A stretch of DNA of 35,701 bases from a virus (Duplodnaviria; Caudoviricetes), in the IMG/VR virus record IMGVR_UViG_3300037419_003064, positions 1-35,701 of that record. The stretch is one strand, 5' to 3'. Position 1 is the first letter of the stretch, and every line of letters starts with the position of its first letter. A program made the position numbers and the translations under genes. The notes below the pieces were generated by a model that had not been told where the DNA came from, ran no database searches, and saw only the letters and a list, made by a program, of their open reading frames with translations. Shown here piece after piece: positions 1 to 35,701 of this stretch.

Positions 1-399
1 TTAGACGTGATGCGCTTGGCGATCATCTACTACGTCACCAAATTTAGATGCGACGTAAGCACGCATAGCGGCTACTAAAGCTGATGCGTCGTGGTTGTCC
101 CATCTACCGCATACTGCATGTTTAGCTGATCTGTGATTCTCATCTAACGTCATAGACCAGGTAATAGGTATATTCTCACGCTGGATTATCGGCCCGCCTT
201 GTGACCAGTTTACGGAAGGGGAATATCGCCATTCTGGCCTGTCCGTTTTTGGCTTTTGGCCGATTATCATTATTGACATCTCAGGGGTATCAACAAGCCA
301 GTAACGTTTGTGTCCACTGTCTTCACGATATGGCATCAATCCTTCCGCCTTTGCCACCCAGTAATCGAGTAGCGGCCCAGTTAATTCACTAACGTTCAT
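1..399 (-). CDS. Phage protein, DUF2591/NinX-like family
   Basis: Motifs 'ELTGPLLDYWVAKAEG', 'YSPSVNWSQGGPIIQRENI' and 'LVAAMRAYVASKFG' are typical of DUF2591 phage proteins. ATGA overlap with the traJ stop. Confidence 0.8.
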   Translation of the reverse strand: MNVSELTGPLLDYWVAKAEGLMPYREDSGHKRYWLVDTPEMSIMIIGQKPKTDRPEWRYSPSVNWSQGGPIIQRENIPITWSMTLDENHRSAKHAVCGRWDNHDASALVAAMRAYVASKFGDVVDDRQAHHV

Positions 400-731
400 C
401 TCAGCATTCTCCCCATGATTTCGTGTGATTGTTTTTGAAGGTTCCGAAACTCTTTCATCATTCGCTCGACTTCTCGCGGATGGGCAAAGAATCCGCGTTT
501 CTCAGTCAGCCAGAGTTCTAGTAATTCGGCCATGCGCCCCAGATCCCCGTTGACCTTTGAAAGCTCCTGTACGGCGTGAATGTCCATGACGGAACGTATC
601 GGCTTGTTCAGTCCGGCAGCGCGAAGATACGCTGACAGAGAAAGATTCGCAGAAGCGGCAAGGCTTCCAATCAAAGCACGCTCATCTTCAGTTACCCAGA
701 CCTTAATCGGCTTGGCGCGTGGTCGGGTCAT
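396..731 (-). CDS. traJ: IncP-type relaxosome protein TraJ (ribbon-helix-helix, oriT-binding; MobC-like)
   Basis: 'PIKVWVTEDERALI..AASANLSLSAYL..G...IRSVMDIHAVQELSKVNGDLGRMAELLELWLT' aligns by eye with RP4 TraJ (PIKVYCLPDERRAI..AAAAGMSLSAYL...VRELARINGDLGRLGGLLKLWLT). Transcribed away from oriT as in IncP. Confidence 0.9.
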   Translation of the reverse strand: MTRPRAKPIKVWVTEDERALIGSLAASANLSLSAYLRAAGLNKPIRSVMDIHAVQELSKVNGDLGRMAELLELWLTEKRGFFAHPREVERMMKEFRNLQKQSHEIMGRMLR

Positions 732-937
732 TTGCCTTTTTTGACCAGATATTTATCTGGATCGAAGCCGTCTTTCCCTTCCTTCTCGGCAGCTTCAATT
801 TGTTTTTCGTAGAACAAAACAGGATCTAAAGAAGCCTCATAATGTTTTTGAGCGTTCTCCATCTTTATCCTTAATTCGTTCAAACTATCTTTTCGATTCT
901 TTAGGCACCATTTGTGCCAATGCATTGGCCTTTTCAT
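728..937 (-). CDS. Hypothetical protein (phage-like, 69 aa, charged helical)
   Basis: ORF coupled by ATGA overlaps to both neighbours. Confidence 0.7.
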   Translation of the reverse strand: MKRPMHWHKWCLKNRKDSLNELRIKMENAQKHYEASLDPVLFYEKQIEAAEKEGKDGFDPDKYLVKKGK

Positions 938-1194
938 TTTATTTTCAGAGCCTCACTGAGTTTCTGGTGAAATTGCTTCTCGGCTAAAGAGACGGCTTGC
1001 TGATATTCATCGACAGCCTGGCGGATTCTGTCGGCCTGACTTTCCGGTTGCTTTCCGCACTTTGGGCATTCATCGGGAAGAGGAACGCCGTGAATGTGTA
1101 CCTTGACCTGGTTGCCGCATGACTTGCACGCAAACGTGTCGTATTCGTCGTCCTCATGGCTGAGGGTAAACCATGGAGTTTTCGGTGCGGCCAT
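934..1194 (-). CDS. Zinc-ribbon protein (CxxC...CxxC) with C-terminal helix
   Basis: CKSC and CPKC motifs. AAGGAA RBS upstream. ATGA overlap downstream. Confidence 0.75.
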   Translation of the reverse strand: MAAPKTPWFTLSHEDDEYDTFACKSCGNQVKVHIHGVPLPDECPKCGKQPESQADRIRQAVDEYQQAVSLAEKQFHQKLSEALKIK

Positions 1195-1233
1195 CTTGAT
1201 TTCCTTATGGTTAAGTTTTAAGCCTCGCAGAAC

Positions 1234-1470
1234 TTACCGCGAAGGTTCATTAACACCCTCGGTGACGTATTTGTATGAAGTCTCAAGCAACCAGAAACCG
1301 ACTCCAATCATTAGGCCATCTTCTAGCCACCCCCGGACTGGTGTTAAGAGCTGCCATAAGAACAGCCATGCAATCATTCTAATTAGCTGCCCACCCTTAA
1401 AGAACACCGTTGCTACTGCAACTAAGCTAACAAAGGTGGCTATATGCTCGAATGTGAAGTTTATGGTCAC
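1234..1470 (-). CDS. Small membrane protein (78 aa, 2-3 TM)
   Basis: Likely GTG start at 1470 with AAAGAGGAAA RBS. Hydrophobic segments. The longer ORF-track start (1590) runs through oriT and is unlikely. Confidence 0.6.
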   Translation of the reverse strand: MTINFTFEHIATFVSLVAVATVFFKGGQLIRMIAWLFLWQLLTPVRGWLEDGLMIGVGFWLLETSYKYVTEGVNEPSR

Positions 1471-1487
1471 GGTTTCCTCTTTGGTTA

Positions 1488-1600
1488 AAGCCTCGCAGAG
1501 CAAGATTGCCCACGTTGAGCCGAAGGCGAATAAGGATGAATGGGCAGTATTGGGAGGACGAAGCGCGCAGCGCGTAGGCCCACAATACACATCTTGCCTA
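1488..1600 (+). other. oriT: IncP/MOBP-type origin of transfer (oriT), predicted nic between 1596 and 1597; overlaps the traJ-II-type leader on the minus strand
   Basis: GCCTCGCAGAGCAAGATTGCCCACGTTGAGC..GCGAATAAGG closely matches RP4 oriT as recalled (GCCTCGCAGAGCAGGATTCCCGTTGAGC...GCGAATAAGG). An imperfect inverted repeat GTATTG(1547-52)...CGCGC-A-GCGCG...CAATAC(1583-88) is followed by ACATCTTG^CC (R751 nic: ACATCCTG^CC). Located between traJ and traK. Confidence 0.88.
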
Positions 1601-1633
1601 CTTTATCAGTAGAACTGAAAAGACCTTTTAGTA

Positions 1634-1739
1634 ACTATACACCATTTTCCGGGAGAAATACACTATACAGCACTATACTGTATTATCAGGGTATAATCCG
1701 TTACAATGCATTGACTATACAGCACAATACTGGTACATT
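1634..1739 (+). promoter_or_regulatory. traK promoter plus phased ACTATAC repeats (likely TraK-binding region)
   Basis: TTGACT(1711-16)-17 bp-TACATT(1734-39). Near-perfect 19-bp direct repeats ACTATACAGCAC(T/A)ATACTG at 1662-1680 and 1714-1732. Confidence 0.65.
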
Positions 1740-1773
1740 GAATTGGCAGCATAGGGATTTAAGGAGGTTTGCG

Positions 1774-2109
1774 ATGGAGGATTCAAAGAAGAGGGCGCGG
1801 AAGGGTACTGGAAGAGTAGCCTTTCTGGCCCATCTGGACGAAATAAAAAAGATGATCGAGGCCGGTCATCCGTTGGTTTCTGTGTTTGAAGAGTATGAGA
1901 GCAAGTTAAGTATTAAATCAGGCCAATTTGGAAAATACGTTAGAAAATATATTAGGAGTAAAACAAATGGAAACACTGATCGAGCAGCAGAAAAAGGAAA
2001 GGACATCAAGAAAGCAGCCCCCATTAGAGCAAGGGAGCCAGGACAGCCAGCCTTTGTTAGTTCCGACATCCCAAGAGACAGAGACAGTCTCATTGGACGA
2101 AAGAAGTGA
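1774..2109 (+). CDS. traK: Relaxosome accessory protein TraK
   Basis: AAGGAGG RBS then ATG 1774. 'RVAFLAHLDEIKKMIEAGHPLVSVFE....F.KYVRKYI' matches the TraK family. First gene right of oriT. Confidence 0.85.
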   Translation: MEDSKKRARKGTGRVAFLAHLDEIKKMIEAGHPLVSVFEEYESKLSIKSGQFGKYVRKYIRSKTNGNTDRAAEKGKDIKKAAPIRAREPGQPAFVSSDIPRDRDSLIGRKK

Positions 2110-2116
2110 GGCCGCA

Positions 2117-2836
2117 ATGAAGAAAGTACATTTTATTCTGCAAAAAAAAGGAGGTGTGGGTAAGTCGGTCGCCGCTTTGATGCTTGCTCAATACCTACGC
2201 AGTATTGGTGAGCCGGTTGAGGTAATCGACACCGATCCGTCCAACGCTACGCTATTCAGCTACAAAGCGTTAAACGGTCAACGTATTCAGTTGATGGAAG
2301 GGAATGTATTAAACGAAGCCAAGTTCGATTTGATGATGAATCGCATACTTGAGGAAGATTCGAGTTTCGTGATTGACTGCGGCGCATCCAGCTTTATCCC
2401 TCTGAGCAATTACATGATCGAAAACAAGGTAGCCGACATGATTGCTGAGAGCGGGAAGCAGGTAGTAGCGCACACGGTTATCGTCGGCGAATCCAATCTG
2501 ATTGATACTCTTACTTCATTTGCGGAACTAGCAGAACAGATGCCTGAGCAGGTGCAAATCATAGTGTGGCTTAATGAGTTTTTCGGAAAGATCGAGATAC
2601 TCGGAACGCCATTCGAGGAACTGGGTGTTTACCTGGATAACCAAAGCCGGGTTCACGGCATTGTCTGCCTTCCAAAAAGAAACCCGGCCACGTTTGGCGC
2701 GGATATCGAAAAGATGCTAACCGCCAGGTTGACGTTTGATGAGGTAAGGCAGTCGCCAGATTTCTACATCATGAATAAATCAAGAATCTTTCGGGTACAG
2801 CAAGATATCTATGGTCAGCTTAAGGCGGTTCTATAA
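2117..2836 (+). CDS. traL: TraL (StbB-like P-loop ATPase)
   Basis: 'KVHFILQKKGGVGKS', 'IDTDPSNAT..YKALN', 'VIDCGASSFIPLSNY', 'VWLNEFFG' and 'MLTARLTFDE' match RP4 TraL along its full length. Start at ATG 2117 with GAGG RBS. Confidence 0.92.
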   Translation: MKKVHFILQKKGGVGKSVAALMLAQYLRSIGEPVEVIDTDPSNATLFSYKALNGQRIQLMEGNVLNEAKFDLMMNRILEEDSSFVIDCGASSFIPLSNYMIENKVADMIAESGKQVVAHTVIVGESNLIDTLTSFAELAEQMPEQVQIIVWLNEFFGKIEILGTPFEELGVYLDNQSRVHGIVCLPKRNPATFGADIEKMLTARLTFDEVRQSPDFYIMNKSRIFRVQQDIYGQLKAVL

Positions 2837-2847
2837 AGGAATTACCT

Positions 2848-3273
2848 ATGGCTAATTTTGAGGAAATTAGAAAGGAGGTCGCAATCAAGCATAATATGGT
2901 GCTTGATGAGAGCGATCCTGTTCTGCTCACGGTAACTATGAGCGAAGAGATTTTGAAACGGTGCGTTGATAGGATCATTGCTCAAAACAGAGAGGACAAT
3001 GAGGCCCATCAAAAAGCAATACTTAACGCGCTACAGCTCGGCAACACAGAAGCAAAGCAGACAGCCGGTAAGGTTATCACTGAGGCCGGTGATTACGTGA
3101 GAGAACAAGTGAACCGTGCGGTTTCTTCTGCAATGGAAGAAGGCGCAGTTCAGTTCATGGAACTGCGCGCCAAGACGCAAGGCTCGGAACGCATCGCATT
3201 TATTGCGATGGTTGTGTCGGTTGCTTGCGCCGTAGTTTCGTTGTGCGTATTAACAAAAGTGTTTTTCACTTGA
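2848..3273 (+). CDS. traM: TraM (C-terminal TM helix)
   Basis: 'EEIRKEVAIKHNMVLDESDPVLL' resembles RP4 TraM 'EELIREIAAKHGIAVGRDDPVLI'. Synteny after traL. Confidence 0.85.
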   Translation: MANFEEIRKEVAIKHNMVLDESDPVLLTVTMSEEILKRCVDRIIAQNREDNEAHQKAILNALQLGNTEAKQTAGKVITEAGDYVREQVNRAVSSAMEEGAVQFMELRAKTQGSERIAFIAMVVSVACAVVSLCVLTKVFFT

Positions 3274-3280
3274 TGAAAAG

Positions 3281-3320: not shown

Positions 3321-3342
3321 ACTTAATCTGGTTAGGTACTGG

Positions 3343-3780
3343 CTAAAACGGTATATCGTCGTCCATATCGTCGAAGCCGCCGCCAGTTTTCTCCTTCGGT
3401 GCGCGGCTTTCTGAATTGTAACTCTTTCCCTGATCCCCGCTTCCTTCCGGCTTCTTGCCAAGCATCCGCATATCGCTTGCAATGATTTCCGTGGTGTAGC
3501 GTTCCACACCCTGCTTGTCCGTCCACTTCTTCGTTTCGATCTTTCCTTCAATGTAGACCTGAGCCCCTTTCTTTAGGTATTCCCCGGCTGTCTCTGCCTG
3601 TTTCCGGTAGAAAACAATACGGTGCCATTCGGTTTTCTCCTGGCGCTCCCCTGATTTGTCCTTCCATGTTTCCGTGGTTGCAACGGTGATATTCGTTACT
3701 GCGTCGCCATTGGGCATATAGCGAACTTCTGGATCTTTGCCGAGGTTGCCAATGATTATGACCTTATTTACTGATGCCAT
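3343..3780 (-). CDS. ssb: Single-stranded DNA-binding protein
   Basis: '[19 protein letters not shown]' OB-fold and acidic C-terminus 'DDDIPF'. Confidence 0.98.
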
Positions 3781-3787
3781 TTTTATA

Positions 3788-3856
3788 TCTCCTGTTTTGG
3801 TGTAATTAACGTTTGTGCTACGATTAATATTATATACTCTGTATCTAGTTTGTCAA
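3788..3856 (-). promoter_or_regulatory. Consensus sigma70 promoter of ssb with embedded operator
   Basis: Minus strand TTGACA(3856-51)-16 bp-TATAAT(3834-29). The spacer contains GATACAGAGTAT. RBS leader ACCAAAACAGGAGA. Confidence 0.85.
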
Positions 3857-3884
3857 CAACTATCTTAAATAAATCAGGTGGTTA

Positions 3885-4187: not shown

Positions 4188-7100
4188 CTATTGCTTTTCC
4201 AGTGCGGATGATTTTTCCCTGACTTTCTCATTCAGGGATTTCATCGTTGTGGTTATCAGTTCGTCTATCATCTTTATGCGCTCCTTGGGGGCGTCTTGTT
4301 TCAGTAACTCGCGCTTGCGTTTTCTGAGTTCCTGAACTCTCTTTTCAGCGCCATTGGCTGCGCCGATTAGTGTCCATTCTGGATTCTCGCGTTTGTATTC
4401 TGCAACATCCTCACGGTTTTTCATGCGGCCTTTTATCTCCGCTTCATGGCCGTTGATCCTCTTCAGGTTTGCGTAAAATTCATTCCCTTGTGACGATTGG
4501 CCTTTGGTGTCACCGAAGAATCTGCCTATAAGAATTTTCTTGTGCGGCGGCAACTCTTCGCCGGAAATGGCGGAAGCGATTGTCTGTTCAGCCTTCAGGT
4601 ATTCGCGGCCTACGCCGCCAGTCGCTTGCTTGATAAGGTAGTCAATCTGGTCCGGTGTCGGGCTGAATGTCCCAGGTTGGTACTTTGTTCCGCCGCTGAG
4701 TGTGTTGATTCCTTCTGCCAGGAACTTGCTTGCAGCGCTCGCGGTATCCTTTGCCCTTGTGAACCCAGGAGTCGGGTTCATGGAATTAAAATCTTCCCGC
4801 GCAATCGGCTTGCCGGTGAAGTCCTTGTTTTCGGCAAGTGCGCCAAATGGATCGGCAGCCGTTGGAAGGATTGTTTGCAATGACATCCCGGCGTTCCCGA
4901 TAGGGTTGAACGCATCCATTATTGAATCCATCATTTGAATGGTGCGTTTTCCGGGATTCTTGAAACCGGACAATGCGAATTCAGAAGTGACGCGCCCCAT
5001 GTTCGGCAGCACGTTAAAGCCTAGCGGCATTGGAATGGAGATATATTTGCCATCGCCTACCGGAATTATCAGGTTTTTCGATTTCACGAATTCAGGCGGT
5101 TCGTCGTCGCCCATCCCGGCTATAGACAAAAGCATGGCTTGCATTCCGCCCAAGAGCAATCCGCCGGTGATGATTCGCTTTCCGGCCGGGCCTTTCATCG
5201 TTTCAGCTAGGCGCGCCGTTCCCTGAACGGATGCATTGAAGAAGGCATACAGGGCGCCCATTTGCCGTCCCATGCTTCCTTTCCTGTTGAAATTTACAGT
5301 GAGATTTTTCGCAAGACTGGCAGCCTGTTGCTTGCTCATTCCCTGGTCAAGAGCCGTCATGTAAGCCGCCAGGCGCACGGCGTTCTCCATCGAGTCGTTG
5401 TAGTCAGATAGCCAGTCGAATAATGGCTTTACCGCTTTGTCTGCAAATAGTTTCTCGGGAGTGTTCAGCAATCCGCCCGCGGTGATTACCTTTCCGATTT
5501 TGGTTTTCTGCCACCAGTCGGGATCAAGTCCTTTCTCAAGCGCGTCGGCTCTTGCCTTGGCGTTGGCGTACATATCCCTGAAGCCAGTTTTCCCGCCCTG
5601 GCGTTGCAAATCCTCCCAGTGCCGTACCATCGGATTGGTAGATACTTTGCCTTTGCGAGTGCCGCGCATACTCTGGTAAATGGCGAGCAGTGCCGGGCCG
5701 GTGCGCGCCATGATGACCGCCTTCTTTCCAGCCAGCGGCGTTGATGTCAGGTTTAGCATTGCGCCCTGCACGTCGCGGGTCAGGTTGACTATGCCGAATA
5801 TCGGGTTGTACTGGGTATTGATGGAGGAAAAATACCGGGTGACTATCGAGGACGCGTTCAGCACGGCGTTAAGCTGGTCTTGGTCGAGATTCTTCAGGGA
5901 TTTAGCCATGCGCAGTGCGCGCGGGTCGTGTTCGTTGAATACGACAGAGCGTTCCTGGATGTTTCCTTTCTTGTCGGGAATGCGGGCAACAACGACATTT
6001 TCACGCTTCTTATAGTTCGGATCGACGCGATCCTCGACAAGTCCAGTAACTTTATTCACAGTGCGGATTGTGGGCGGTACATCCACTTTCCAGAAATCAG
6101 GATGTGGATTGTCTTTCGCCAGTCCTATGAGTGCGGTAGCCACGCGGTTCTTCTCGCCGCGGATGATATTCTTCTCGCGCTGTTGGGCTATGTTGGCGAG
6201 GATGTCAACGACCTTACGCTTTGATCCGGTTGCACGCTTTGAAGCATTGCCTTTAACTGAAAAGCCTTGCCCGGTCCCGTTGCCGAAAGCGTGATCCATA
6301 TCGTCGCGCATCAGGGGTACGTAATGCTTGTACGCTTTCTGCCAGGTGTTGATGGTATCTTGTGACTCAAGACCGTAGCTTACAAGTACCTGGCGTGATT
6401 TGGCGTTCATCGCATCAACACGCTTTGCCAGTGAATCGTAAAGCGCACGCTTTTGTGGATCAAGATTCGCCAGATATGCGCGGGCATGCTTTGTACTCAT
6501 GCCCGAACCGCTATCTGGAAAATCGGTAGGATTTATCTTGGCGATTTGAATGTTGCGTTCTTCTGCGTGACGCGCCCAAAGATATTCCTCGAAGTCGGCC
6601 ATTTTCACGCCATTAACTCGCATGAGTTTGATGAGCGGGTCCAGTTCGGTATCGATGAACTCTTTTACGCGGGTGGCCGTTCTGCCATGAAACAGCTCTT
6701 CTTGCAGGTAGGCATTGACGTTATCCGCAATCTGTTTGCCGGTTTCCTTGATTGCCTCGGTAACGCGCTTCAGGTCAATATGCTTGTCCTGCAAGGCGTG
6801 AATGAGATCATCCAGGCGTGAGGGCTCGGGAGAGTCGAATGTGCTGCTTGGTCCTCTTGCGGCAACAATGAAAGGGTTATTCGTGTCGAAGTTGCCGTTA
6901 TTTCCGATTGATGATTTGGCCTGCTCTGGATCGAATACCACATATTCTAAGCCGGTCAAGGCGTCAATAATTGCGCCGTCATGACCGTCTGCTTTCAGTT
7001 CTCCTAGAAATTCCTCTTGCGTACCGGCTTGAATGATTCCGTCCCAAGTATCGGTGTCGATCTCCGCCGGATTCTTCAGTGACAGGTACAGCGGGATAAT

Positions 7101-10100
7101 GTGTGACCCGTCTCGGCCTAATGTGTACCCCTCGGCATAACTCGGTTCATCAGTAGCGAAAATTCCGCCCTTCTCCACGCGTAGCGCCCCGCCTTCTATA
7201 TCTGCCGCCGTACCGTGATAAACAACGAGCGGTTTACCGTCCTTGTCTACAACTTTGGAATCTCCGAACCACTTTTTAAATGCTGGTGTATCGGTTTGTG
7301 ATGTCGGCCCCTCTTGTACAACTCTCCCGGCCCTGTCAGGATCAATGCCGTATTCCTTTCCATTTCCTGGAAAAAAACGAGATTTTAGGTTTTCGTCTAC
7401 GGCATCCCGCAAGAAACCATTGTTTATTAAATCTGTTGTTATGGTTCCGTCCAGATCGGTGGATGAACCATAGGCAAAGACAACCTGCGCCCCGGTTCTT
7501 CTCGCAAACCGTCTTACCGCGGCCTTTGCTAGAATCCTGTTTCTGTAAGTAGTTGTAGGGATCTCGGCAATTGCGCGCACGCCCGTTGTGCCGGAAACAC
7601 CAATCAAAGTTACCCAGCCTTCTTTCTGGAATGACTTGCCTATGGCAGCAACCTCTTGCGGCCGCTGGGCTTGTTGTCCGATATAGTTGCTCGGCTTTGA
7701 TGCTTTCAGAAGAGCATCTTCGCCAAAGTGTTTTGTAACTACTTTGGAATGAACCGTGTGCCCTGTTCCAGAAAGCATGATTTGCGCATACTTGTTGGAA
7801 TTGATGACCACATGCCCCTTCATCCCAGGCACCAGTTTTGCCAGGGTTTTTGTCACCATGAGATCTGCCCCGCTTGGTGTCGGATCGCCAGAAGGGTGAT
7901 TGTGCAATAGCCAATAGCCGTCGGCTTCAGCGGTTTGCATCGTGCTTTTCATCCAGTCCAGCCATTCATTCTGAGCCATGCCAGCAGGCATCAATGACGC
8001 GGATGCTGGCAGGCGGGACGTTACGCCGGATGCCAGGACAATGCTGTTGCCTTTGGTGAAGAAAATACGGACGGTTTCATACCGCGGGTTGCGGTATATC
8101 TGGGCTAACTCTGCGAGCTGTGCGGGAGTCGAGATTTTTTGTCCGACGAGCGCCGCAACACCTTTGTGTTGGATGGTTTCCGCGATTCCGTTTGCGAGGA
8201 TTCGCCCGCCTCGTAACGGTTTTGGATTCCCCCGCAAAGAATCATGCGCTTTTTCTTTTGACTTGGTTTTTTCATCGGCTGGCTCAGTGCGCTCAACGAT
8301 AACATCCATCTTATCGGGGTAGGTGGAGTGTGTGCGGGGTCTACCAACGCTTATCCACTTACCATCTTTGTCTTTCTTAACTTCTTCGACGGTTACAGAC
8401 CAATCATGGCCTTTACGGTCAAAGGATATTACGCGGTCATGTTGACCGCCCCGGCGCCCAATAATGTTGCCAGGTGTGTAATGATCAGCCAGTTTTTCAA
8501 GGGCATCTTTATGTCGGGTCTTGAGTGATTTTTTCGGTGCGGCCTTGGGCTTTTCTTCCTTAGGTTTTGCTTCTTTCTTCTGTTCCTGCTTGGGTTTAGG
8601 CTCAGGCTTAGGTGCCGGTTTAGGTTCTGTTTTCTGGCTATCCCACTTCAGTATGGCTTTTCTACGCTCGGATATTGGCAGCGACTCAAATGAGTCAATC
8701 GATTTTGCTCCGGCTATCTTGATGATAGCTTTGTGATCTTTATCGGATAGATCATAAAAGCCTGTCCCAAGAAGTCGGCTTATGCGTTTCTCTTCTGGCG
8801 ATAAAGGTTCTTGTGAAGGTGGAGTATGTTTGGCGTCTCCGAAGCCCTGTTTCAGCCCATTGTTTTTCTTGAAATAATGGTATGCGAGTTTTTGTATTGC
8901 ATCTTCGCCATTCTCAATGGCTGCGGATATTTCTGTTTCTGATGCGCCGAACTCGGCGGCGTCCTTTATTGACGCAACAGAATCAAACCCTTTCGCTTTC
9001 GCGATTGCTTCAAGTCGTGATATTGCGTTATCACGGTCCTCGGCTGTGGCGTATGGGCGCCCAGCCTTCGACTCCGGCTTTACCTGATCTTGTCCGCCGC
9101 TTCCTTTAGGGCTTTCATTATTAGCGGATTGCTTCTCGCTTTTTGCATCAGGTTTACTATCGGGCTTTGCGAAGAGGTCTTCGGAGGTTGGCTGCTTTTC
9201 TGTGATTCTTTCTTTTGCATTTTTCAACAGTTCCGGTTTGGTTGGAATGCTGGCGCCAAACATATCGCCAGATGTCAGGTCAAGTTTTGCTATTGAATCA
9301 TAGTAGGCTTTGATGAAGTCCGCTATCTTCTTTTGGGAGCGAATGTTGGCTTCCAGTACCCGCAGAATATCCTTTTCGGTATCGCTGGGGCCATCGTCAA
9401 ACATGCCGATCTGTGCCAGGTATTCGTCAACCGTCATTCCCTTTGACCGGATCTTGGATAGTTCCTCGACGGCTGAAACAAGATCCTGGCTTACATCGAG
9501 TTCCTTGGGTATTGCGCCTGATTCAATATCGGCGCGAACTTTCGATACCGATCCGGCCGCTTTGACGAGCGCCCCGGAAATATTCCGAAGATCGTTATCT
9601 GTGGACTCGACCAGCCGTTCAAGCGTAGGGGAATTTCCGTATGCCTGGTAGAGCATGGCGTTTCTTATGCGCCGCACTCCTTCTTGCGATAGCTTACCGT
9701 CCTTGTCAACGAGCGCTCCTAGTTCAGCCGCATTGAAACCGCTGAGGGAATGGCGCAAGTTCTGGATATTCGCCCCGGTCAAGGCAATGTCACCCGAATC
9801 GGTGACTTCCAGGTCAGAGAGATTCTTCATCCGGCCAGCATCGATCTTGGCGAGTTCCAGACCGGAATACTGCATCCCGGTGCCTGAGTTGGAAGCTATC
9901 GCCAGCTTGCGGGTATCGAATGGCTGCGTAATGCGGCGTACCAGTACCGGCTTTTTCATGCCGTCTATCTTGGCCGGGTCAATGCCTTTTGCCGCTGCGT
10001 CGGCTTTCAGTTGCGCAAGGTAAACCGCTGCGGTGCCTTGGTCATAGGCGCGGTTGATCCCCTCGAATCTGCCATTGCCGCCAACGATTAAGCCATCGTG

Positions 10101-11864: not shown

Positions 11865-13144
11865 TATTTAAAATCCTTACCGAAGATCAATACTTTTTTC
11901 TGGCCTGGTGCCGGTGCGGCTTCTGGTGGCGGTGTCTCGTCGCCGCGAAGTTGCCCGGTTAATTCATTTACCTTTCCGGCAATGTCGCCATTTTCGCCGT
12001 AAGGGGAAAGCGTCTTGCCCACAAGAGTTGCCGCTACCTTCTGCCCGGACGCACCGAATAGCGGTTTCCCATTAGTTCCAGTGAGAGCTTTCTGTGTGCC
12101 ATCGGACATTACGGCCACAATTCCCTGATTAGTTTCGACGGTTCGTACTACTCGGGGAAGTTTGCCGGGTCCGCCTAGACCGCCAGTTTTCCCGACATTT
12201 TTGGTTTCTGCATTCAGTTTCCCTACCCTGGCATTGTTCACCAATACTTGTGAGTCAGAGACGTTGCGCTTTCCTTGCGCTACGCTTTTTTCCAGGTCGT
12301 GTTTCAGGAACTTGTCAGGGTCGAGCGTTGTTTGCAGGAGATTCCCTATGTCCATTACCTTTTCGCCCACGCCTTCTATGTTGATTTTCCATAGCCGTGG
12401 ATTATTCGGGTCTGCTGGTTCTGGACGGTCAGCTAGTTTGACGCCGCCGCGCCTCAGGCTGTCTATCGCGTCATCCACCTGGCCGCGCATCAGTTGCATG
12501 GCACCATCTATCATCCCGGTTTTCTTTGCGGTGTAGGCGCGCTCCAGGAACGGCGTAATGGCCTTGCCCATGCCGTGCAATTCCGCGAATGCCTGCATTT
12601 TGCTGAGCTTGTCAGGATTGCTCAGCAAGTCGGTTGTCATCATCGCCTTGGTGATTCGTTGCTGAGGCGTGAGATTTTCTTCCGGCGCCTGCTGGGGTTG
12701 CTGGGGTTGGGGCTGTTGTGGTGGGGCCATGGTGGATAACCCGACGCTAGACGGCGGTACTCCACCAGAAAATACGCCATCGTCCAGAGTTGCCAAACCG
12801 CCTTGTGCGTATCCCTTGATGATCCCCATGCCATAGTTGGGGCGGTCAGTCATGGGGCGCAGCGCCATTGATTCCTGAGTCGGAGCCATGTTCATCGGTG
12901 CGCTGCTTCCATCGGTGCGGAATGAAAGCGGCTTGGTCCCGCCATCGGCAATGTCGGCAAGGCCGGTAAGGACATCTTCTGATGTTGCTGCGGCCTTGTC
13001 CCTGTCATCTTGCTTCTGCTTATGTTCCAGCGCGCTCTGGTCCGCATATTGCTGGTAAATATCAAGATACTTCTTGCTGTTCTTGATGTTCATTCCGGTG
13101 TTAAGGCCAGATGTCAATCCGCCCATGAATGAGCCAAGTCCCAT
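11864..13144 (-). CDS. Putative internal virion (DNA ejection) protein
   Basis: Gly/Met-rich N-terminus 'MGLGSFMGGLTSG', Q/P linker, and position between ejection-type genes. TAATG coupling. Confidence 0.6.
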   Translation of the reverse strand: MGLGSFMGGLTSGLNTGMNIKNSKKYLDIYQQYADQSALEHKQKQDDRDKAAATSEDVLTGLADIADGGTKPLSFRTDGSSAPMNMAPTQESMALRPMTDRPNYGMGIIKGYAQGGLATLDDGVFSGGVPPSSVGLSTMAPPQQPQPQQPQQAPEENLTPQQRITKAMMTTDLLSNPDKLSKMQAFAELHGMGKAITPFLERAYTAKKTGMIDGAMQLMRGQVDDAIDSLRRGGVKLADRPEPADPNNPRLWKINIEGVGEKVMDIGNLLQTTLDPDKFLKHDLEKSVAQGKRNVSDSQVLVNNARVGKLNAETKNVGKTGGLGGPGKLPRVVRTVETNQGIVAVMSDGTQKALTGTNGKPLFGASGQKVAATLVGKTLSPYGENGDIAGKVNELTGQLRGDETPPPEAAPAPGQKKVLIFGKDFK

Positions 13145-14271: not shown

Positions 14272-14273
14272 AT

Positions 14274-21244: not shown

Positions 21245-21247
21245 TAC

Positions 21248-21430
21248 CTACCTCGCAAGCAGGATGGATACGCCCCAAATCAGAAGGCAAATTGCGGCGC
21301 CGCCGACTATGATGGCCGCCGTCCATTTTGATGCCTTCAACTTATCAAGCAGAGAGTCAGCTTTCGTGTCTGCCTGCTCTGCCGCTTGCCGCGCTTCGTC
21401 TCCTGCCTTTTCCCATACTGATTTAGCCAT
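21248..21430 (-). CDS. Small protein with C-terminal TM helix
   Basis: AGGAG RBS. 'WTAAIIVGGAAICLLIWGVSILL'. Confidence 0.65.
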   Translation of the reverse strand: MAKSVWEKAGDEARQAAEQADTKADSLLDKLKASKWTAAIIVGGAAICLLIWGVSILLAR

Positions 21431-25205: not shown

Positions 25206-26477
25206 TTACAGCGGAACGGCGGAGTCAACCGCGATCACGCCAAAGTCTGTCGGAACCTTCGAGCCGGTGCCGTCATCAACCGAGAACCGGGTTTTCATGT
25301 GGCCGCATACTTTTTCGCCCATGACTTCAAGATTGCTCTCGAAGTTGTACCAGTGCTCTTTCCAACCGAACTGCATACCGGATACCTTCGTCTTGCCGTA
25401 GGCAATACCGAGGGCTTGGGCACCCAGCAACAGGCCGCGTTCGACTGCGTAGCCAGAGGTGAGCGAAGCATTGACAGCCTGATCGGTTTCGGTAGCGGTT
25501 GCCGCGTTGGCCGAAGTGATGATCTTGGTGGACTCGCTGATTGCGAAACGCACAGCGCGCTCGTTCTTGATCACCAGAATGCCATTCCACATTCCGACTT
25601 CACCCGCAAAAAGAGGGTGCTTGGTATCGAAATAAGCGGCCCGGTTCACGGCATTTTGCTGGAATGCCCGAAGCGATCCTTCCGTCAACAGAATCGAATA
25701 CTGATTAGGCGTTGCCAGGAAAACCCACATCTTGGAAGTTGCAGATGCCTTATCGCCGGGCAGGGAAACAGGCTGCAAGGGTTGATCCATGTCATCCAGC
25801 TTCTTGCGAAGCAGGTCCAGGTGCACCAGCTTCAGCGCATCTGTCGAAACGATGGAACCCAGTTGCTGTCCGCCTTGCGTCAGGCCCGAGCCATTCACCA
25901 CGAAATGGCGGTTATAGGTCGGTGCCTTGACCGTATTTACCATGATCGAGGCGAAGTTCGCGGAACTCTGGATCGGTATGGTCCAATCCATTCCTGTCTG
26001 GGAACCGCGAGCCCCCGCCAGGTGCACCAGCGAGGTTTGTGAGGATAACCGGGGGAAATAGCCGGATAACTGCGCCAGCGCGATTTCCCGCAATTGCCAT
26101 TTGGTGCGTTGCTGCGACATCGTTCCGCCAGCGTCTACCACTTTGCTGGACAGATCAATCTTGATGTCCATCGAAGAGAACGAAAGTGCGCTGCCACGGC
26201 CTTCGCGGTTCACGTCGCCCATGATAGGTTCGCCGCTGATCGTATCCACCAAATCGAGCGATACCGTGTCACCCGGATTCTTCATCAGGTTGTCGATACG
26301 CACGATAGGCAAGCCGGGCTCGGTCTGTCCGGCTACCTTTTCCATTGCCGAGGACGGATCAATCGGGCCAACCAGGTTGTCCATTGCCGTGCTTGCTTTC
26401 AGCGTATTCGCAAAGAGCGCGGCGCTATACTGCTTGATTGCTAACGAACTTCCGCTCGCTATGTTTGTTTCAGCCAT
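25206..26477 (-). CDS. Major capsid protein (N4-gp56/DUF4043 family)
   Basis: 'PIVRIDNL.K..GDTVS.DL', 'PIMGD...EGRG..L.FSS..IKID', 'GG.MSQQRT', 'HLAGARG', 'HPLFAGEVGMWNGILV', 'LLGAQAL' and 'DFGVIAVDSAV'. Confidence 0.92.
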   Translation of the reverse strand: MAETNIASGSSLAIKQYSAALFANTLKASTAMDNLVGPIDPSSAMEKVAGQTEPGLPIVRIDNLMKNPGDTVSLDLVDTISGEPIMGDVNREGRGSALSFSSMDIKIDLSSKVVDAGGTMSQQRTKWQLREIALAQLSGYFPRLSSQTSLVHLAGARGSQTGMDWTIPIQSSANFASIMVNTVKAPTYNRHFVVNGSGLTQGGQQLGSIVSTDALKLVHLDLLRKKLDDMDQPLQPVSLPGDKASATSKMWVFLATPNQYSILLTEGSLRAFQQNAVNRAAYFDTKHPLFAGEVGMWNGILVIKNERAVRFAISESTKIITSANAATATETDQAVNASLTSGYAVERGLLLGAQALGIAYGKTKVSGMQFGWKEHWYNFESNLEVMGEKVCGHMKTRFSVDDGTGSKVPTDFGVIAVDSAVPL

Positions 26478-26490
26478 TTCTCAAATCCTT

Positions 26491-27441
26491 TTAATCAAGT
26501 TCGGCTCTCAAGGCTTTCGCTTTGTGCGTGGGCATGCTCATCAGCTTCTTTGTGAGGTCTTGCGGATGCATATTCGCAATCTGTTCGGCCTCGGTAGCTG
26601 CCGGGCTTGCTCCGCCCTGAATATCCGATAGGGTTGTGGGTTTCCTTGCCGGGGCTTTCTCGACCTTGGCTTTCGCTTCGGCCTTTACTTTTTCCGGGTC
26701 GGCTTGTTTTTTCGGTGCTGAGGCGTCGGGCATGATGGCTCTTACGCGGCGGACAACTTCCGCGAACCGCTCCGCATAGGGCTTGTTTACCCATTTGGAA
26801 TTTGTCCGGAGAATCTCGTCCTGCCGTAAGGCTTCGTCCCATGCTTCTGGATCGCTGTTTTCCCAATGAACCAGGTCCGGGTTATTGTCCTTCGCTTCGG
26901 CTACTTGCTCTGCAACGCTCTGTTGCTGTATGCGCTCGGATTCCTCTTTTTCGCGCTTCAGTTCTTCAAGCGTTTTTTCCAGCTTTTCGCCTTGCTTGCG
27001 GCTCCCTTCGAGCACGGCGGCAATCACGGTATGGAGTTCAGGCATCTCTTCCTTGAGATTAGAAAGATGCTTGGCAATGGCGTCGTCTGCCTCTGCCACA
27101 TCTTTCTTGCTCCCGGCTTCATCCTTTGCCTTCAGCAGCTCATCCAGTTTGCTTTGGGCATCCTGTAATTGCTGCTTCAGTGTCGAATTCTCGACCCGTA
27201 ATTGCTTGTGCTTTTCGTAAGGGATAACCCCCTTGCCGCTCTTGTTCAGAATGACCGGCTCTTCCTCTTCACCCGCGCCGTTAGCCGCGCCTTCCTGCTC
27301 TTCCTGTTCGGGTTCATCGGTTTCCTTGCCGCCCTTTGCCGCCATGATTTCATCGAGCTTTTCTGGATTGGTTTCCAGAGTCTCGATTTCTTCAGGTGTC
27401 AGGGATGCGACTTGTTCATTTGTAAGCTGATCCAGTTCCAT
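26491..27441 (-). CDS. Capsid scaffolding protein
   Basis: Acidic coiled-coil with 'KSGKGVIPYE' motif, directly upstream of the capsid gene. GGAG RBS before ATG 27441. Confidence 0.8.
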   Translation of the reverse strand: MELDQLTNEQVASLTPEEIETLETNPEKLDEIMAAKGGKETDEPEQEEQEGAANGAGEEEEPVILNKSGKGVIPYEKHKQLRVENSTLKQQLQDAQSKLDELLKAKDEAGSKKDVAEADDAIAKHLSNLKEEMPELHTVIAAVLEGSRKQGEKLEKTLEELKREKEESERIQQQSVAEQVAEAKDNNPDLVHWENSDPEAWDEALRQDEILRTNSKWVNKPYAERFAEVVRRVRAIMPDASAPKKQADPEKVKAEAKAKVEKAPARKPTTLSDIQGGASPAATEAEQIANMHPQDLTKKLMSMPTHKAKALRAELD

Positions 27442-27606
27442 TGCCTTATCTCCAACTACTTGACCCAGTGAGCGGGCCTGCCGTGGCAGGGTTGATAGAA
27501 AACTTCGGTGTCGCCGTGAGCGCGTTTCAGTCCGTCGCAAATTGCGACGAGATCAAATTCCTTAATAAAATCAATTAATGGGGGAAAATCCCCCTTTTCT
27601 CAGGGC

Positions 27607-27650: not shown

Positions 27651-29222
27651 TTATTTCCTCATCGTGTATCTTGGTGAGGCTGTGAGGTCCTCTACAGCGC
27701 CAAAATTAGGCGCTTGGTAAAATGGCCGTCCGTAGTAGTCCTTCCCTCCAAGATTAGCCCCAGATCGCATCAGCGCTGCCGCTTGTGGGCGGTAGAGCGT
27801 GTCTAGCATAGGGTGAACGCTCAGATCGTTGGCACCCTGGGAGATCCCAACGTATGGATTGGGAGAACCATAGATGTTGTTGTAATCAGCGGTAGTAGAG
27901 GGATTGGCTCCTATGAAGAAACCTATACCGCAGTTATGCATAATATTGTTCTTCACCGTGATATTCCCGGTTAGCGCGCTGGTCCCTACCTTCCATACGG
28001 CGGCATTGCAGTTAATGAAAGTGTTGTTCAGGACATGATTGCCTGTTTCTTCCGATCTTCCGAAGAATGTCCCGCGGTTGCAGTCCTTGACAATATTCCC
28101 GATGTACTTTGATCCGGTTGCAGTCCAGAATGCCAGTCCGCACCCGCTGTTAGGATCGCCCGTACTGATCAAATCCGCGATGTAATTACCGTAGGCAAGA
28201 CCATCTATGGTCAAGTCATCGAAGAAAATTCCATTGCCGTCTATGGGAAAGCCATTCTGGAAGCTGGCCGTATCGGTGCCTGAGCGAATTCCTGTCACTC
28301 GGTTGAAGATGATTCGTGGCTGCTTGTTTTTGGCAGTCTGAATCCCGCCGCCGGTAACGTAGCAATCCCTTACCGTGTTATTGGCGATCAGCGGAGCGAC
28401 GAAACCAGATAAAAGCAATCCTCCATGATTGCCGTTATCTCCCGCTACGGTGCCGCAGTCATGAACCGTGTTCCCGGACACAACCAAGCCCGATGAATAA
28501 ATAGGCGGCGGCGTTGTTTTATCGTTATTGCACGTCCTGAGGTAGATCGAAGGTCCGGGAGTGTTATAGACCGTGTTGTTCGCGACCAGATAATCCTTGA
28601 AGCTCGACGTATCCCAAGCAGCGTTGGTAGATTCAATAGCAAGATAGATGCCGTACAAACCAGTATCGTGAACTGTGTTTCCAGTTATTTTGATCCCGGA
28701 GGATACAATCGACGCTGTGCCTATGCCTTGCGCGATGCCCATATTTTCCTGCCCCGAGATAAGGCAATTGCTAACAGTCATCGAGGTATAGGCTATGCTT
28801 GAGTCTAGCCCCACAGCAGCATAACCACCGACCAGGGAGCATCCATCAATTACTATACCGGCCGCAGCCCCAATGTATATGCAGTATTGCCCACTGGCTG
28901 TGCTAGTAATGGCCAGCGCTTTGATCGTTGTCCACGCTCTACTGCAATTCATCCAGCCAGCAACCGTGAAGTTTATGCTCCCAGCGTCGCCGGAATAATC
29001 GCCTCTGATCGTTGCTCTGGTTGTATTGGATGATCCGCCGTGCGCCCCCACTGCTATGGAAGCGGTATAAGCATGAGCGCCACAAAGGTAGAGCGTATCG
29101 CCTGCATTAACGCCGGACGCGCCCCAAACGATCTCAGACCAGCCGCCCCATGCCGTGGCATAAGACGTGCCGTTGCGCGTTCCGCTATGGCTTGTATCGG
29201 GGCGAACGTACCAGGTCGTCAT
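27651..29222 (-). CDS. Right-handed parallel beta-helix (pectin-lyase-like) protein; depolymerase/spike candidate
   Basis: Repeated PbH1-type strands 'ITGNTVHD', 'VANNTVYN', 'VSGNTVHD', 'IANNTVRD', 'VLNNTFIN' and 'VKNNIMHN'. Confidence 0.8.
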   Translation of the reverse strand: MTTWYVRPDTSHSGTRNGTSYATAWGGWSEIVWGASGVNAGDTLYLCGAHAYTASIAVGAHGGSSNTTRATIRGDYSGDAGSINFTVAGWMNCSRAWTTIKALAITSTASGQYCIYIGAAAGIVIDGCSLVGGYAAVGLDSSIAYTSMTVSNCLISGQENMGIAQGIGTASIVSSGIKITGNTVHDTGLYGIYLAIESTNAAWDTSSFKDYLVANNTVYNTPGPSIYLRTCNNDKTTPPPIYSSGLVVSGNTVHDCGTVAGDNGNHGGLLLSGFVAPLIANNTVRDCYVTGGGIQTAKNKQPRIIFNRVTGIRSGTDTASFQNGFPIDGNGIFFDDLTIDGLAYGNYIADLISTGDPNSGCGLAFWTATGSKYIGNIVKDCNRGTFFGRSEETGNHVLNNTFINCNAAVWKVGTSALTGNITVKNNIMHNCGIGFFIGANPSTTADYNNIYGSPNPYVGISQGANDLSVHPMLDTLYRPQAAALMRSGANLGGKDYYGRPFYQAPNFGAVEDLTASPRYTMRK

Positions 29223-29225
29223 TCT

Positions 29226-29798
29226 TTAATCCCCAACGAAATGAAGGCAGCGGTAATACTCAAGCGCCATTGCTTCGCTTGCTGCGCGTTGGCCTAATAT
29301 CTGCACGGTCACAGCCACCGAAAAGTCGATTGAATAGGTCGCTGGTGCGCCTGAACCCGCCGTAATGTATGTGTTGTCGTACGGCTGGATTTGTGATGCA
29401 AGCGAATTGCGGTTCGCCAGGACGATTAGCGGCGCCTCTTTAACAGATGTCGTGCGCGTCGTGTTGTACACCGTTGATCCGCCCACTTTGACCTTGCAGA
29501 GCTTGTTATTCGCGCTGCTCGCGAATGTCCAGAGGGGTTCGATTTGCAGGATACTGTTCGGCCCCAGTATTCCAGCCGCAATCGTGAACGCCGCCAGAAT
29601 CTCATCAACGCCAGTAGAGGAGCATGATACGGATACGGCAGAACTGGATAGAACCTCGACCGGCTTGGTGACAGCGGGGTAATTAACGGCATCCCCTTGG
29701 GCTATTAAAGCGGTTTCAGTCGGCGTGTCGAACAGTGCCACGGAGCCCTTGCCATATCGGTAGCCATAAACCGTTTCATCGTTCAGGAACTTAATCAT
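29226..29798 (-). CDS. Hypothetical virion protein (beta-sandwich)
   Basis: AGAGG RBS. Lies between portal and beta-helix genes. Confidence 0.65.
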   Translation of the reverse strand: MIKFLNDETVYGYRYGKGSVALFDTPTETALIAQGDAVNYPAVTKPVEVLSSSAVSVSCSSTGVDEILAAFTIAAGILGPNSILQIEPLWTFASSANNKLCKVKVGGSTVYNTTRTTSVKEAPLIVLANRNSLASQIQPYDNTYITAGSGAPATYSIDFSVAVTVQILGQRAASEAMALEYYRCLHFVGD

Positions 29799-34093: not shown

Positions 34094-34546
34094 TTAGGCA
34101 GTTGGCGGCTTTTGGGCAGAAACAAAGGAAATCGTTATTTCTTGAGTGATTGGCTTGCTTGGATCGCCGCCCTGATGTTCGTTTACAACTTTGTCACCGT
34201 ATTTCTTCGGTGATAGTTTCGATGCGTACCATTTGCGCGCATCAACTCGAAGGCGCGAACGGTTTACAACTTCGTGGTCTGTGACTTCATAACCGTCTTT
34301 GTCAGTGCGCTTATCGAATCGGCTATCATCGGCAATCTCAATGATTTCTTCAGCCAGGTAATCAGCGCATAACTCCTTCGCGCGCGCGTATTGCTGTACC
34401 AATTCTTCATCGTTGCTTAGCCAGTTCCACAAAGTTTTTTGTGAAATGCCAGCTTCAATGCACATTGACCGAGCAGATTTTCCTTGTGCGATTCCTTCAA
34501 GGATCAAATCTACTTTGGCTTTTGTTTTAATTGTCTTGCGTGCCAT
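34094..34546 (-). CDS. terS: Terminase small subunit (Sf6 gp1-like HTH)
   Basis: 'I...IAQGKS.RS.C', 'TLWNWL', 'QYARAKE..AD..AEEI.EIADD' and 'RSRLRVDARKWYASKLSPKKYGDK'. Confidence 0.92.
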   Translation of the reverse strand: MARKTIKTKAKVDLILEGIAQGKSARSMCIEAGISQKTLWNWLSNDEELVQQYARAKELCADYLAEEIIEIADDSRFDKRTDKDGYEVTDHEVVNRSRLRVDARKWYASKLSPKKYGDKVVNEHQGGDPSKPITQEITISFVSAQKPPTA

Positions 34547-34803
34547 TATTTGCTGCATCCTTTTACGGCTGCTCTCATCTTGACCTCACAAGCTGCCCGC
34601 TCTTCGAGTTCGGCCCTCAGAGCCCGATTAACTACCAGCATATTGTCAGCAGGGGAAACGCGGTCAACCGCGTATGCGTCCTTGCATTCGCCAGGTATTT
34701 GCACTTCACACGGTACTTGAATGGGTCTATCGATGACTTGAGTCTGAATTACCGGCTTCCCCGCGCAACCGGCGAGCATGAGTGCAACGAATATCATTCT
34801 CAT
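34546..34803 (-). CDS. Outer-membrane spanin (Rz1-like lipoprotein)
   Basis: 'MRMIFVALMLAG-C' lipobox, 'PIQVPC' and 'RAL.AE...R...E..MRAAV.GC'. Confidence 0.8.
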   Translation of the reverse strand: MRMIFVALMLAGCAGKPVIQTQVIDRPIQVPCEVQIPGECKDAYAVDRVSPADNMLVVNRALRAELEERAACEVKMRAAVKGCSK

Positions 34804-34967
34804 TGCATTTTTTTCCAATGCGGCTCTTGATCTTCGCTCTCTGGGGCTCCTGACCTGATCCTTCTAACCCCAGCCACACCAGGCAACAGCGACGTGATGC
34901 AAGCCACCAGTGTCTCGTCTTGTGGCGTCGCGCCTTCTGCCATTTCAATAATTATTTCAGTCGCCAT
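34800..34967 (-). CDS. Hypothetical 55-aa protein (not in ORF track)
   Basis: MATEIIIEMAEGATPQDETLVACITSLLPGVAGVRRIRSGAPESEDQEPHWKKMQ*. Starts inside the i-spanin 3' end and its stop forms ATGA with the o-spanin start. Confidence 0.6.
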   Translation of the reverse strand: MATEIIIEMAEGATPQDETLVACITSLLPGVAGVRRIRSGAPESEDQEPHWKKMQ

Positions 34968-35340
34968 TTCTGCGCCCTGTTACATATTCGATCTGTTCCC
35001 GCTCAACGGCCTGGCATAGCGTCTCATCTTGGCGAATTGGCGCCGATTTGATGACTATTGCCCGGCTTGTGTGTTTATCTGCCTTGGGCTGTGCCTTTAC
35101 CACTTCGGCTTCGGCTTGCTTGACTTTCTCAGCAGCGGCCTGAGTGAGTGCGGCCACATCAGCGCGCACGCTCCGCACATCGGCGGCACAGCGATCATTT
35201 GCGGCAGTGAGTACGGAATTATCGGAGTTTAGCTTCGCTATCCGGGCACCTGATCGCCAATCACTGACCACAAATCCGCCAGTAAAGGCAAGACCCGTAA
35301 AAATAGCGATTACTACCGCGAGAATGGCTGGGCTTATCAT
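34957..35340 (-). CDS. Inner-membrane spanin (Rz-like)
   Basis: N-terminal TM ending 'GFVVSDWR', Ala-rich coiled coil and C-terminal Cys. Confidence 0.75.
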   Translation of the reverse strand: MISPAILAVVIAIFTGLAFTGGFVVSDWRSGARIAKLNSDNSVLTAANDRCAADVRSVRADVAALTQAAAEKVKQAEAEVVKAQPKADKHTSRAIVIKSAPIRQDETLCQAVEREQIEYVTGRRNGD

Positions 35341-35352
35341 TTATTTTGGACG

Positions 35353-35374
35353 AAAAAAAACCCGCATAAGCGGG
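35353..35374 (-). terminator. Intrinsic terminator directly before the first late gene (tR'-like)
   Basis: CCCGC-TTAT-GCGGG followed by T8. Confidence 0.8.
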
Positions 35375-35403
35375 CTGGGTGCAAAACTCGACACTACAAA
35401 AAG

Positions 35404-35433
35404 ATGATAAATCATGTACCTGGCTTTTGTCAA
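35404..35433 (-). promoter_or_regulatory. Late-operon promoter (pR'-like)
   Basis: Minus strand TTGACA(35433-28)-18 bp-TATCAT. Confidence 0.6.
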
Positions 35434-35469
35434 GGAAAAAATATTTATAAAAATAATTGATAAAACCTC

Positions 35470-35524
35470 TTGACAATGGATACAGAGTATCTATAATGAA
35501 CACATCAACAACCAAAACAGGAGA
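35470..35524 (+). promoter_or_regulatory. Consensus sigma70 promoter with operator, paralogous to the ssb promoter
   Basis: TTGACA(35470-75)-16 bp-TATAAT(35492-97). Palindrome GATAC-AGA-GTATC in the spacer. RBS leader ACCAAAACAGGAGA (35511-24). Confidence 0.85.
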
Positions 35525-35530
35525 ACAGAA

Positions 35531-35701
35531 ATGGAAAACGGATTAGTTAGCGGATACACATTGCAAAGCATCAAAGATGGGGCTCTTGTCGAACGCCTGT
35601 TCTTTGTTGACGGCAGCAAAATATTCGAAGGCGTTGATCAGAAAGTCGGCCCTAACTTCATATCTCATACATGGGTTGTGTCTAATAGACACCTTGAATG
35701 G
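35531..35701 (+). CDS. Hypothetical protein, truncated by window end
   Basis: AGGAG RBS, ATG 35531, open to the end (MENGLVSGYTLQSIKDG...). Confidence 0.7.
   Translation, partial: MENGLVSGYTLQSIKDGALVERLFFVDGSKIFEGVDQKVGPNFISHTWVVSNRHLEW

Follow-up and report, generated by a model that had tools for sequence, protein, structure and literature searches.

The 35,701-bp DNA analysed here, the whole of IMG/VR record IMGVR_UViG_3300037419_003064 (hereafter the window), carries the late genes of a podovirus directly beside a conjugative transfer (tra) module. The likely reading is that it is part of a temperate podovirus of about 65–68 kb, probably circular, that carries a fixed module comprising a MOBP relaxase, a type IV coupling protein (T4CP) and a type T mating-pair formation system (MPF-T), and that is predicted to move both in virions and by self-conjugation. 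The arrangement is a real, recurrent phage-conjugation hybrid. One capsid-sized unit very probably carries both gene sets and, judged from sequence, both routes are rather likely to be working. The record is labelled 'provirus', with a CheckV completeness of 56%; its virion operon is complete, its genome is not, and the window probably represents about half of the phage genome.

Family scans of the 44 open reading frames (ORFs) of the window revealed a podovirus late block on the − strand (4188–35340), all of whose ORFs are open and tightly packed. The terminase, portal, capsid, tail/adaptor, ejection and lysis genes are intact, which marks a temperate tailed phage. A first-pass annotation, made from the letters alone, had named an N4-gp56 capsid; this holds as a family name, but the phage itself is 933W-like. 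The capsid matched TIGR04387 with 59.5 bits, just under the cut-off of 60. The element has the capsid family, a P22-like portal and a giant LPD38 protein in common with 933W/Stx2-type temperate podoviruses and Achromobacter phage CF418P1; the best GenBank capsid matches were CF418P1 (50%) and Stx2a and Vibrio phages (36–37%), with genomes of 57–63 kb. The 2558-aa LPD38 polyvalent protein, whose domains have been exchanged between relatives (34–71% identity by segment), is likely an internal protein that is ejected.

The first-pass annotation had described this operon as lying intact beside traJ, an origin of transfer (oriT) and the divergent traKLM genes, which the family scans and an Rfam traJ-II match confirmed. 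It had also seen no insertion sequence or integrase at the junction, in agreement with the absence of any integrase or transposase family among the 44 ORFs; no resolvase, Rep3 or tRNA was found in the window either. Neither an att site nor an assembly break was found at 3.8–4.2 kb. A contig from run X1, which may be the window's own source, is continuous there, and the hairpins at 3.93–4.07 kb, considered as att sites, resemble terminators and have counterparts among the short repeats of other contigs. ATGA stop/start overlaps join a Zn-ribbon gene, a 69-aa ORF, traJ and a NinX-like phage gene, bearing out the translational coupling of the traJ operon to phage-type genes. The promoters said to bracket the virion block were also recovered: two perfect sigma-70 promoters (3856 on the − strand, 35470 on the + strand) have GATACAGAGTAT in common (2 found against 0.08 expected). 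This 12-bp motif, which lies in the promoter spacers (3834–3845 and 35479–35490) with a short inverted repeat, is likely a common operator for early genes. It is absent from the corresponding promoter of the related record G025.

The module had been called IncP-type. The traJ-oriT-traKLM core is indeed present, and an oriT with nic, TraJ and TraK lie in the window, as in self-transmissible MOBP/MPF-T elements; the backbone order and TrfA/Kor control of IncP-1 (RP4/R751) were not found. Since the gene order follows plasmids pSN1216-29 and pNRS527-1, and the Tra proteins fall below the IncP NCBIfam cut-offs (TraJ, NF010451, 82 bits against 134), the module is not IncP-1 proper; it is closest to the MOBP + MPF-T type of these two plasmids. 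They show the same order (traM-traL-traK-oriT-traJ-relaxase-T4CP-peptidase-slt) with a convergent trb operon, the ATCTTG nic is common to all, and TraL identity between plasmid and phage-linked copies is 53–59%. TraJ is 67% identical to that of pNRS527-1, TraM 48% to the pNRS527-1 gene following traL, and the traJ-II stretch 85% to the pNRS527-1 traJ–traK gap and 77% to pSN1216-29. The nic-like CATCTTGC at 1590–1597 was kept in 10 of 10 aligned Nitrosospira-type loci, and a nic-like motif was also present in two more distant loci. According to its description (PMC6232296), pSN1216-29 is self-transmissible in experiments, has the putative nick ATCTTG and is set apart from IncP-1. In contrast to the phage-linked elements, where 859–1851 bp of phage-type genes separate nic from traJ (859 bp in the window), the two plasmids lack virion genes and, like other non-phage elements, have only 97–150 bp there.

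The junction recurs. TraL was present in two of 50 related virus records (G025 and G028). Among 36 metagenome TraL loci, the LPD38 gene lies tail-to-tail after traM in six (L118, L120, L122, L123, L126 and L136), all six belonging to a set of 11 loci whose TraL identity is 66% or more; the other five include L124 and L125, without the window's phage genes, and L121 and L148, which end too early. L126 belongs to the G025 element (0 mismatches over 13,341 bp). The traM-to-virion junction is found in five diverged lineages (the window; G025/L126/L136; G028; L122/L123; L118/L120), with TraLs 59–93% identical and differing junction contents. This recurrence, together with the phage-type genes inside the tra operon, upholds the first-pass view of one element and not a chance neighbourhood, and the search for other genomes linking virion genes to traKLM yielded four further lineages. 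Small genes lie between nic and traJ, between traJ and traI and among the trb genes of the phage-linked elements and differ between them; 7 of 17 inserted genes of the relatives scanned match PHROG families, and the NinX-like gene holds the same position in G028 and L126. The inclusion of ssb in the module stood only in part: it adjoins traM in the window, but forms a promoter unit of its own and is absent at the traM–virion junction in G028, L118/L120 and L122/L123.

Other searches returned little. IMG/VR scans with the window TraL alone and with the L126 relaxase gave no matches and one with a TraL alignment gave one locus, while the oriT pattern and the TraJ alignment each matched G025 and G028 only. 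The relaxase family was found in none of 45 shorter related records, all of them fragments. The seven TraL loci from a GTDB scan were distant (identity no higher than 49%) and were not accompanied by the window's phage genes. In PLSDB the capsid matched 10 records, with identities of up to 41%, each of them typed non-mobilizable. PLSDB also types pNRS527-1 (L161) as non-mobilizable, although it has a complete set of relaxase, T4CP and trb genes; the module thus escapes MOB typing. L193, the only IMG/VR locus retrieved with a VirB4 alignment, was dropped as a probable chimera, its VirB4 being fused mid-gene and in frame to a phage protease/capsid ORF.

L193 indicates that chimeras do occur in the collection, all records are metagenomic, and a 131,088-bp contig with two allele sets (see below) may itself be a joined assembly. 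Even so, it is very improbable that the junctions arose by misassembly of a phage with a plasmid of the same host: the same junction appears in five diverged lineages, the module borders are spanned by overlapping reading frames, one element measures 68,211 and 68,229 bp in separate assemblies, and six of eight runs from different studies (four flagged as possible source) contain at least 83% of the words of window 1–8000. Read depth over tra and virion pieces was similar in two runs not flagged as source (X5, 3.5–5.6 against 4.6–8.8; X6, 3.2–6.3 against 4.1–5.9). Coverage holes in run X2, of which 61% was read, were not used as evidence.

The element continues beyond the window's left end. 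The first-pass annotation had overlooked the relaxase start there (26..1, − strand). The 36,642-bp X1 contig, with 0 differences to window 1–12,000, reaches 15,631 bp further left, and on L126 the relaxase (in exact register), coupling protein, transglycosylase and trbI match in order; a 6,170-bp contig from run X3, likewise flagged as a possible source, shows the same leftward pieces. The MOBP relaxases of L126 and L122 scored 472 and 459 bits (NF041893, cut-off 250) and their TraG coupling proteins 776 and 813 bits (cut-off 586); both proteins are thus above curated cut-offs in these two loci, and are placed in the window's element by DNA match. L126 and L122 also hold TraF, VirB1 and TrbI/H (TrbG in L122), ordered as in pNRS527-1 and pSN1216-29. 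The Tyr/HUH motifs of the relaxase and the Walker A motif of VirB4 are intact. TrbG/H/I, TraF and VirB1 were read directly in phage-linked elements, while VirB4 was placed by matching contig sizes. Because the sequence past the left end goes on into genes for a relaxase, a coupling protein and Trb proteins, the element is predicted to be self-transmissible and not merely helper-dependent, which corrects the earlier proposal of a phage mobilised by an IncP helper. The flanks proposed for inspection thereby supplied the MOBP relaxase, the coupling protein and trbI, but no integrase or Rep in the parts seen.

Co-occurrence of proteins on full contigs, and circularity, were inferred by matching recorded contig sizes and not by reading the contigs. 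A contig of 68,229 bp is on record for each of the G025 proteins major capsid protein (MCP), RecT, methylase, relaxase, TraG and TrbI, and one of 68,211 bp, which includes L126, for a VirB4. With G025 aligned collinearly, a DUF1643 gene falls 10.3 kb past the right end of the 68,211-bp contig, yet its protein is recorded on a contig of 68,211 bp, which suggests that the genome, of about 68.2 kb, is circularly permuted. A gap of 9.9 kb is unread and trbA–trbG span 8.6–9.5 kb in two plasmids, leaving only 0.4–1.3 kb of the circle unexplained and available for a plasmid backbone. Size matching also placed the G028 capsid and a VirB4 on a 67,383-bp contig, and the L122 relaxase and TraG on one of 66,613 bp. 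Window proteins are recorded on the 131,088-bp contig, in which capsid (98%), TerL, SSB and VirB4 (92%) each occur as two alleles; it is probably two elements of about 65.5 kb, either sisters in tandem or a joined assembly. The window, its left extension and a G025-sized early region sum to about 65.5 kb. The inferred size of 65.5–68.2 kb, compared with 61.6–69.9 kb for four near-complete relatives without tra genes, would make the element capsid-sized.

Outside the window's range, G025 encodes a lambda-like, repressor-like helix-turn-helix protein, an O-like initiator, RecT, YqaJ, NinB and a resolvase, and so supplies repressor, replication and recombination functions. After RecT/YqaJ, the relatives G012 and G009 carry integrases and G032 carries ParA, TrfA and a resolvase, and the conjugative members appear to have trb/tra in this slot. 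This slot, bounded by the early-left operon and the last virion gene, would thus be exchangeable for integration, plasmid maintenance or conjugation, and a lysogen existing as an extrachromosomal circle is our best guess. G032 (L104–L107) is a 61.6-kb record with terminal repeats, 100% complete, without integrase or tra genes, and is a probable phage-plasmid member of the family; its TrfA (L105, 462–3373) has a clade of more than 30 close homologues.

A prophage might instead have inserted repeatedly in a small conjugative plasmid or an integrative and conjugative element (ICE), the halves keeping separate identities and the phage excising before packaging. This is improbable, given one position with five different junction sequences, phage-type genes inside both the tra and trb operons and on both sides of traJ, the little space for a plasmid backbone, element totals within a narrow capsid-like range and no integrase in G000, G025 or G028. 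The difference in GC content between the tra (46%) and virion (53%) blocks fits such an insertion, as do the close non-phage versions of the module (L124/L125, pNRS527-1), the scatter of phage-linked copies in the TraL tree and published phage-ICE tandems (PMC13651849), Hodor megaplasmids of more than 300 kb (PMC12934698) and the cointegrate p1002-1 (10.1101/2025.03.14.643293). In all of these, prophage DNA is moved by conjugation; the parts lie side by side or nested with separate identities ('rather than a hybrid element', in the wording of PMC13651849), whereas the present modules are interleaved in a recurrent capsid-sized unit.

Both gene sets are under purifying selection. Between tra-linked elements the ratio of nonsynonymous to synonymous divergence (dN/dS) was 0.03–0.06 for TraL, 0.14–0.25 for TraK, 0.15–0.30 for TraM, 0.06–0.07 for MCP and 0.05 for the LPD38 protein. 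It is unlikely, though less so than repeated prophage insertion, that only one route of a fused element works today, i.e. that it is a conjugative plasmid whose virion genes are vestigial, or a phage in which the type IV secretion system (T4SS) serves another role such as protein delivery or exclusion, transfer being rare or lost. P1-like phage-plasmids that gained a relaxase/oriT had lost phage genes (PMC10879196; 10.1101/2025.08.29.673033), but here the virion genes are full length in the window, G025 and G028, MCP is among the conserved proteins and the size remains capsid-like. Between slt and trbI, L126 and L122 lack the primase and topoisomerase genes that pSN1216-29 has, but pNRS527-1 is without a primase at this spot too, and nic, the relaxase motifs, TraG and VirB4 are all intact.

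Several observations weigh against a dual-route phage. Most dN/dS pairs are near dS saturation, and part of the purifying-selection signal may predate the fusion and come from plasmid ancestors. The phage-linked TraLs do not form one clade, L126 grouping weakly (84/59) with the non-phage L124/L125; this non-monophyly suggests that exchange of the module with plasmids continues, and that the selection signal is possibly older. A quick, unfinished MCP tree (38 rows) resolved little. TraL is absent from 48 of the 50 related virus records, including five of five near-complete ones. TrbB, C, D, J, K, L and F are inferred in the phage-linked elements from the available space alone, the VirB4 P0290 is recorded on 68,211 bp but not on 68,229 bp, no complete genome was read, and none of the eight runs is recorded as a virion preparation. 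As regards maintenance, no tyrosine integrase was found in the partial records G000, G025 and G028 (integrases were found in the controls G012 and G009), no Rep3 in the same three (about 10 kb of the circle being unread), and no TrfA on the relevant contig sizes among the best 120 of 614 hits.

Such a dual-route phage could work as follows. The tra/trb module would fill the exchangeable slot described above, which in integrative relatives contains int and in a plasmid-like relative TrfA/ParA. During lysogeny, with the genome most likely kept as an extrachromosomal circle, TraJ and TraK would bring the relaxase to nic, and the entire genome would be transferred through the T4SS into an adjacent cell, the donor surviving. 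P22/Sf6-type terminases package by the headful. Upon induction, the genome would replicate as that of a lambdoid phage, be packaged whole by headful, tra genes included, and leave by cell lysis.

The host is probably the soil nitrifier Nitrosospira, to judge from the following: the 90% cluster of the window capsid includes a protein from a Nitrosospira metagenome-assembled genome and that of G028 includes Nitrosospira sp. 56-18, the nearest plasmid (pNRS527-1) is from Nitrosospira, and all eight runs are from soil or rhizosphere. An order-level sample of 301 genomes contained four with weak MCP matches (27–41%), and no close host genome was reached.

Phage-plasmids such as P1, N15 and SSU5 (PMC7969092, PMC12282955) resemble the element in their full virion and lysis genes and probable extrachromosomal circle; the present element differs in having relaxase, coupling protein and T4SS genes, and no plasmid Rep/Par was identified in the parts seen. 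Among 50,697 GenBank phage records, none matched TraL, one matched the relaxase weakly and four unannotated short records matched VirB4. T4SS domains are described as sporadic in phage-plasmids (10.1101/2025.11.07.687105), one fusion, p1002-1, has been named a conjugative phage-plasmid, and a set of 51 viral operational taxonomic units with plasmid hallmarks (10.64898/2025.12.20.690322) could include related cases. The main text of a paper on soil nitrifier viruses (PMC11849493) contains neither 'conjuga' nor 'plasmid', and a 2025 review states that combined spread by virus particles and conjugation was never found. No description of this lineage was found in the literature searched, most subscription papers being outside its scope.

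The features of the window are collected in Table 1. The 118-aa ORF listed at 1234–1590 overlaps oriT, and only its 78-aa 3′ part was accepted as a gene. A 15-bp direct repeat of the traJ leader end (1217–1231 and 1485–1499) brackets this inserted 78-aa gene, as if the leader end had been duplicated upon its insertion.

Table 1. Features of the 35,701-bp window
Position	Strand	Feature	Support
1..26	−	Start of MOBP relaxase TraI (first 8 codons, MIAKRITS); gene runs off the window	Identical to L126 relaxase start
1..399	−	P22 NinX-like phage gene between traJ and traI	PF10765 E 8.5e-19, phrog_4389
396..731	−	TraJ relaxosome protein, ribbon-helix-helix type	PF21983 E 4e-19
728..1470	−	Three small inserted genes (69 aa; Zn-ribbon, 86 aa; 78-aa hydrophobic ORF) between oriT and traJ	
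1489..1599	−	oriT/traJ-II motif, putative nic CATCTTG^C at 1590–1597	Rfam RF01760, 49 bits (gathering 40)
1774..2109	+	TraK-like oriT-binding protein	PF17273; 37% to pNRS527-1 TraK
2117..2836	+	TraL P-loop ATPase	NF010461 E 1.5e-74, 250 bits (below cut-off 360)
2848..3273	+	TraM	NF010470 E 5e-8; PF11657 weak
3343..3856	−	ssb (ORF 3343–3780) with own consensus sigma-70 promoter bearing the shared 12-bp motif	
4188..11864	−	2558-aa polyvalent protein (ddrB-ParB, JAB, ART-PolyVal, LPD38 domains), last virion operon gene	
11864..14876	−	Two virion/ejection proteins and GNAT acetyltransferase	phrog_9667, phrog_8003, PF00583
14876..19804	−	Structural ORFs and 677-aa virion protein (likely tail nozzle)	phrog_511 E 9e-164; conserved in relatives
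20006..21430	−	Endolysin and small neighbouring lysis-region genes	PF00959
21440..25138	−	Tail fibre, two SU10-type adaptors, small head genes	Family scans
25206..27540	−	Major capsid protein (423 aa) and likely scaffold	PF13252 E 3e-144, phrog_334, phrog_479
27651..29798	−	Beta-helix protein and 190-aa ORF	PF13229
29810..34558	−	Portal (P22-like), TerL, small ORFs, TerS	PF16510 (portal), PF04466 (TerL), PF20901 (TerS)
34546..35340	−	Rz1/Rz-like spanin pair	phrog_456, phrog_2466
35470..35701	+	Perfect consensus sigma-70 promoter and start of early gene cut by contig end	

Among the relatives, G025 has an Acb2/Tad1-hairpin (anti-defence) gene beside Rz (L099, 16668–16916) and a FliA-like sigma factor in its early operon (L100, 6596–7288). 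Many provirus records of 20–27 kb (L018, L028–L030, L032, L034, L041, L052, L055, L071, L075, L076, L078 and similar) start at Rz and seemingly hold the virion block only, with capsids 78–85% identical to that of the window; in G019 the virion block lacks an LPD38 gene and continues into host genes and a gene for type ISP restriction. The virion-block-only records are possibly a domesticated remnant resembling a gene transfer agent.

All three IMG/VR records of the hybrid carry the label 'provirus' and stop at or within the tra genes, so that elements of this kind are probably under-counted. We consider it reasonably likely that they represent a natural family of conjugative bacteriophages, in which one capsid-sized replicon, possibly without an integrase or a classical plasmid Rep, spreads either by lysis and virions or by non-lethal self-conjugation, and which has been missed so far because provirus callers split it at the tra genes. 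If both routes work, the element would fill a missing combination in the classification of mobile elements with a lineage that keeps both machineries under purifying selection, and would make it possible to test directly when an element opts for lysis instead of mating. With entry by conjugation, lysogen range would no longer be tied to receptor range. As the probable hosts are soil ammonia oxidisers, this would bear on nitrifier mortality and gene flow, and the element might provide a native transfer vector for a genus that is hard to manipulate.

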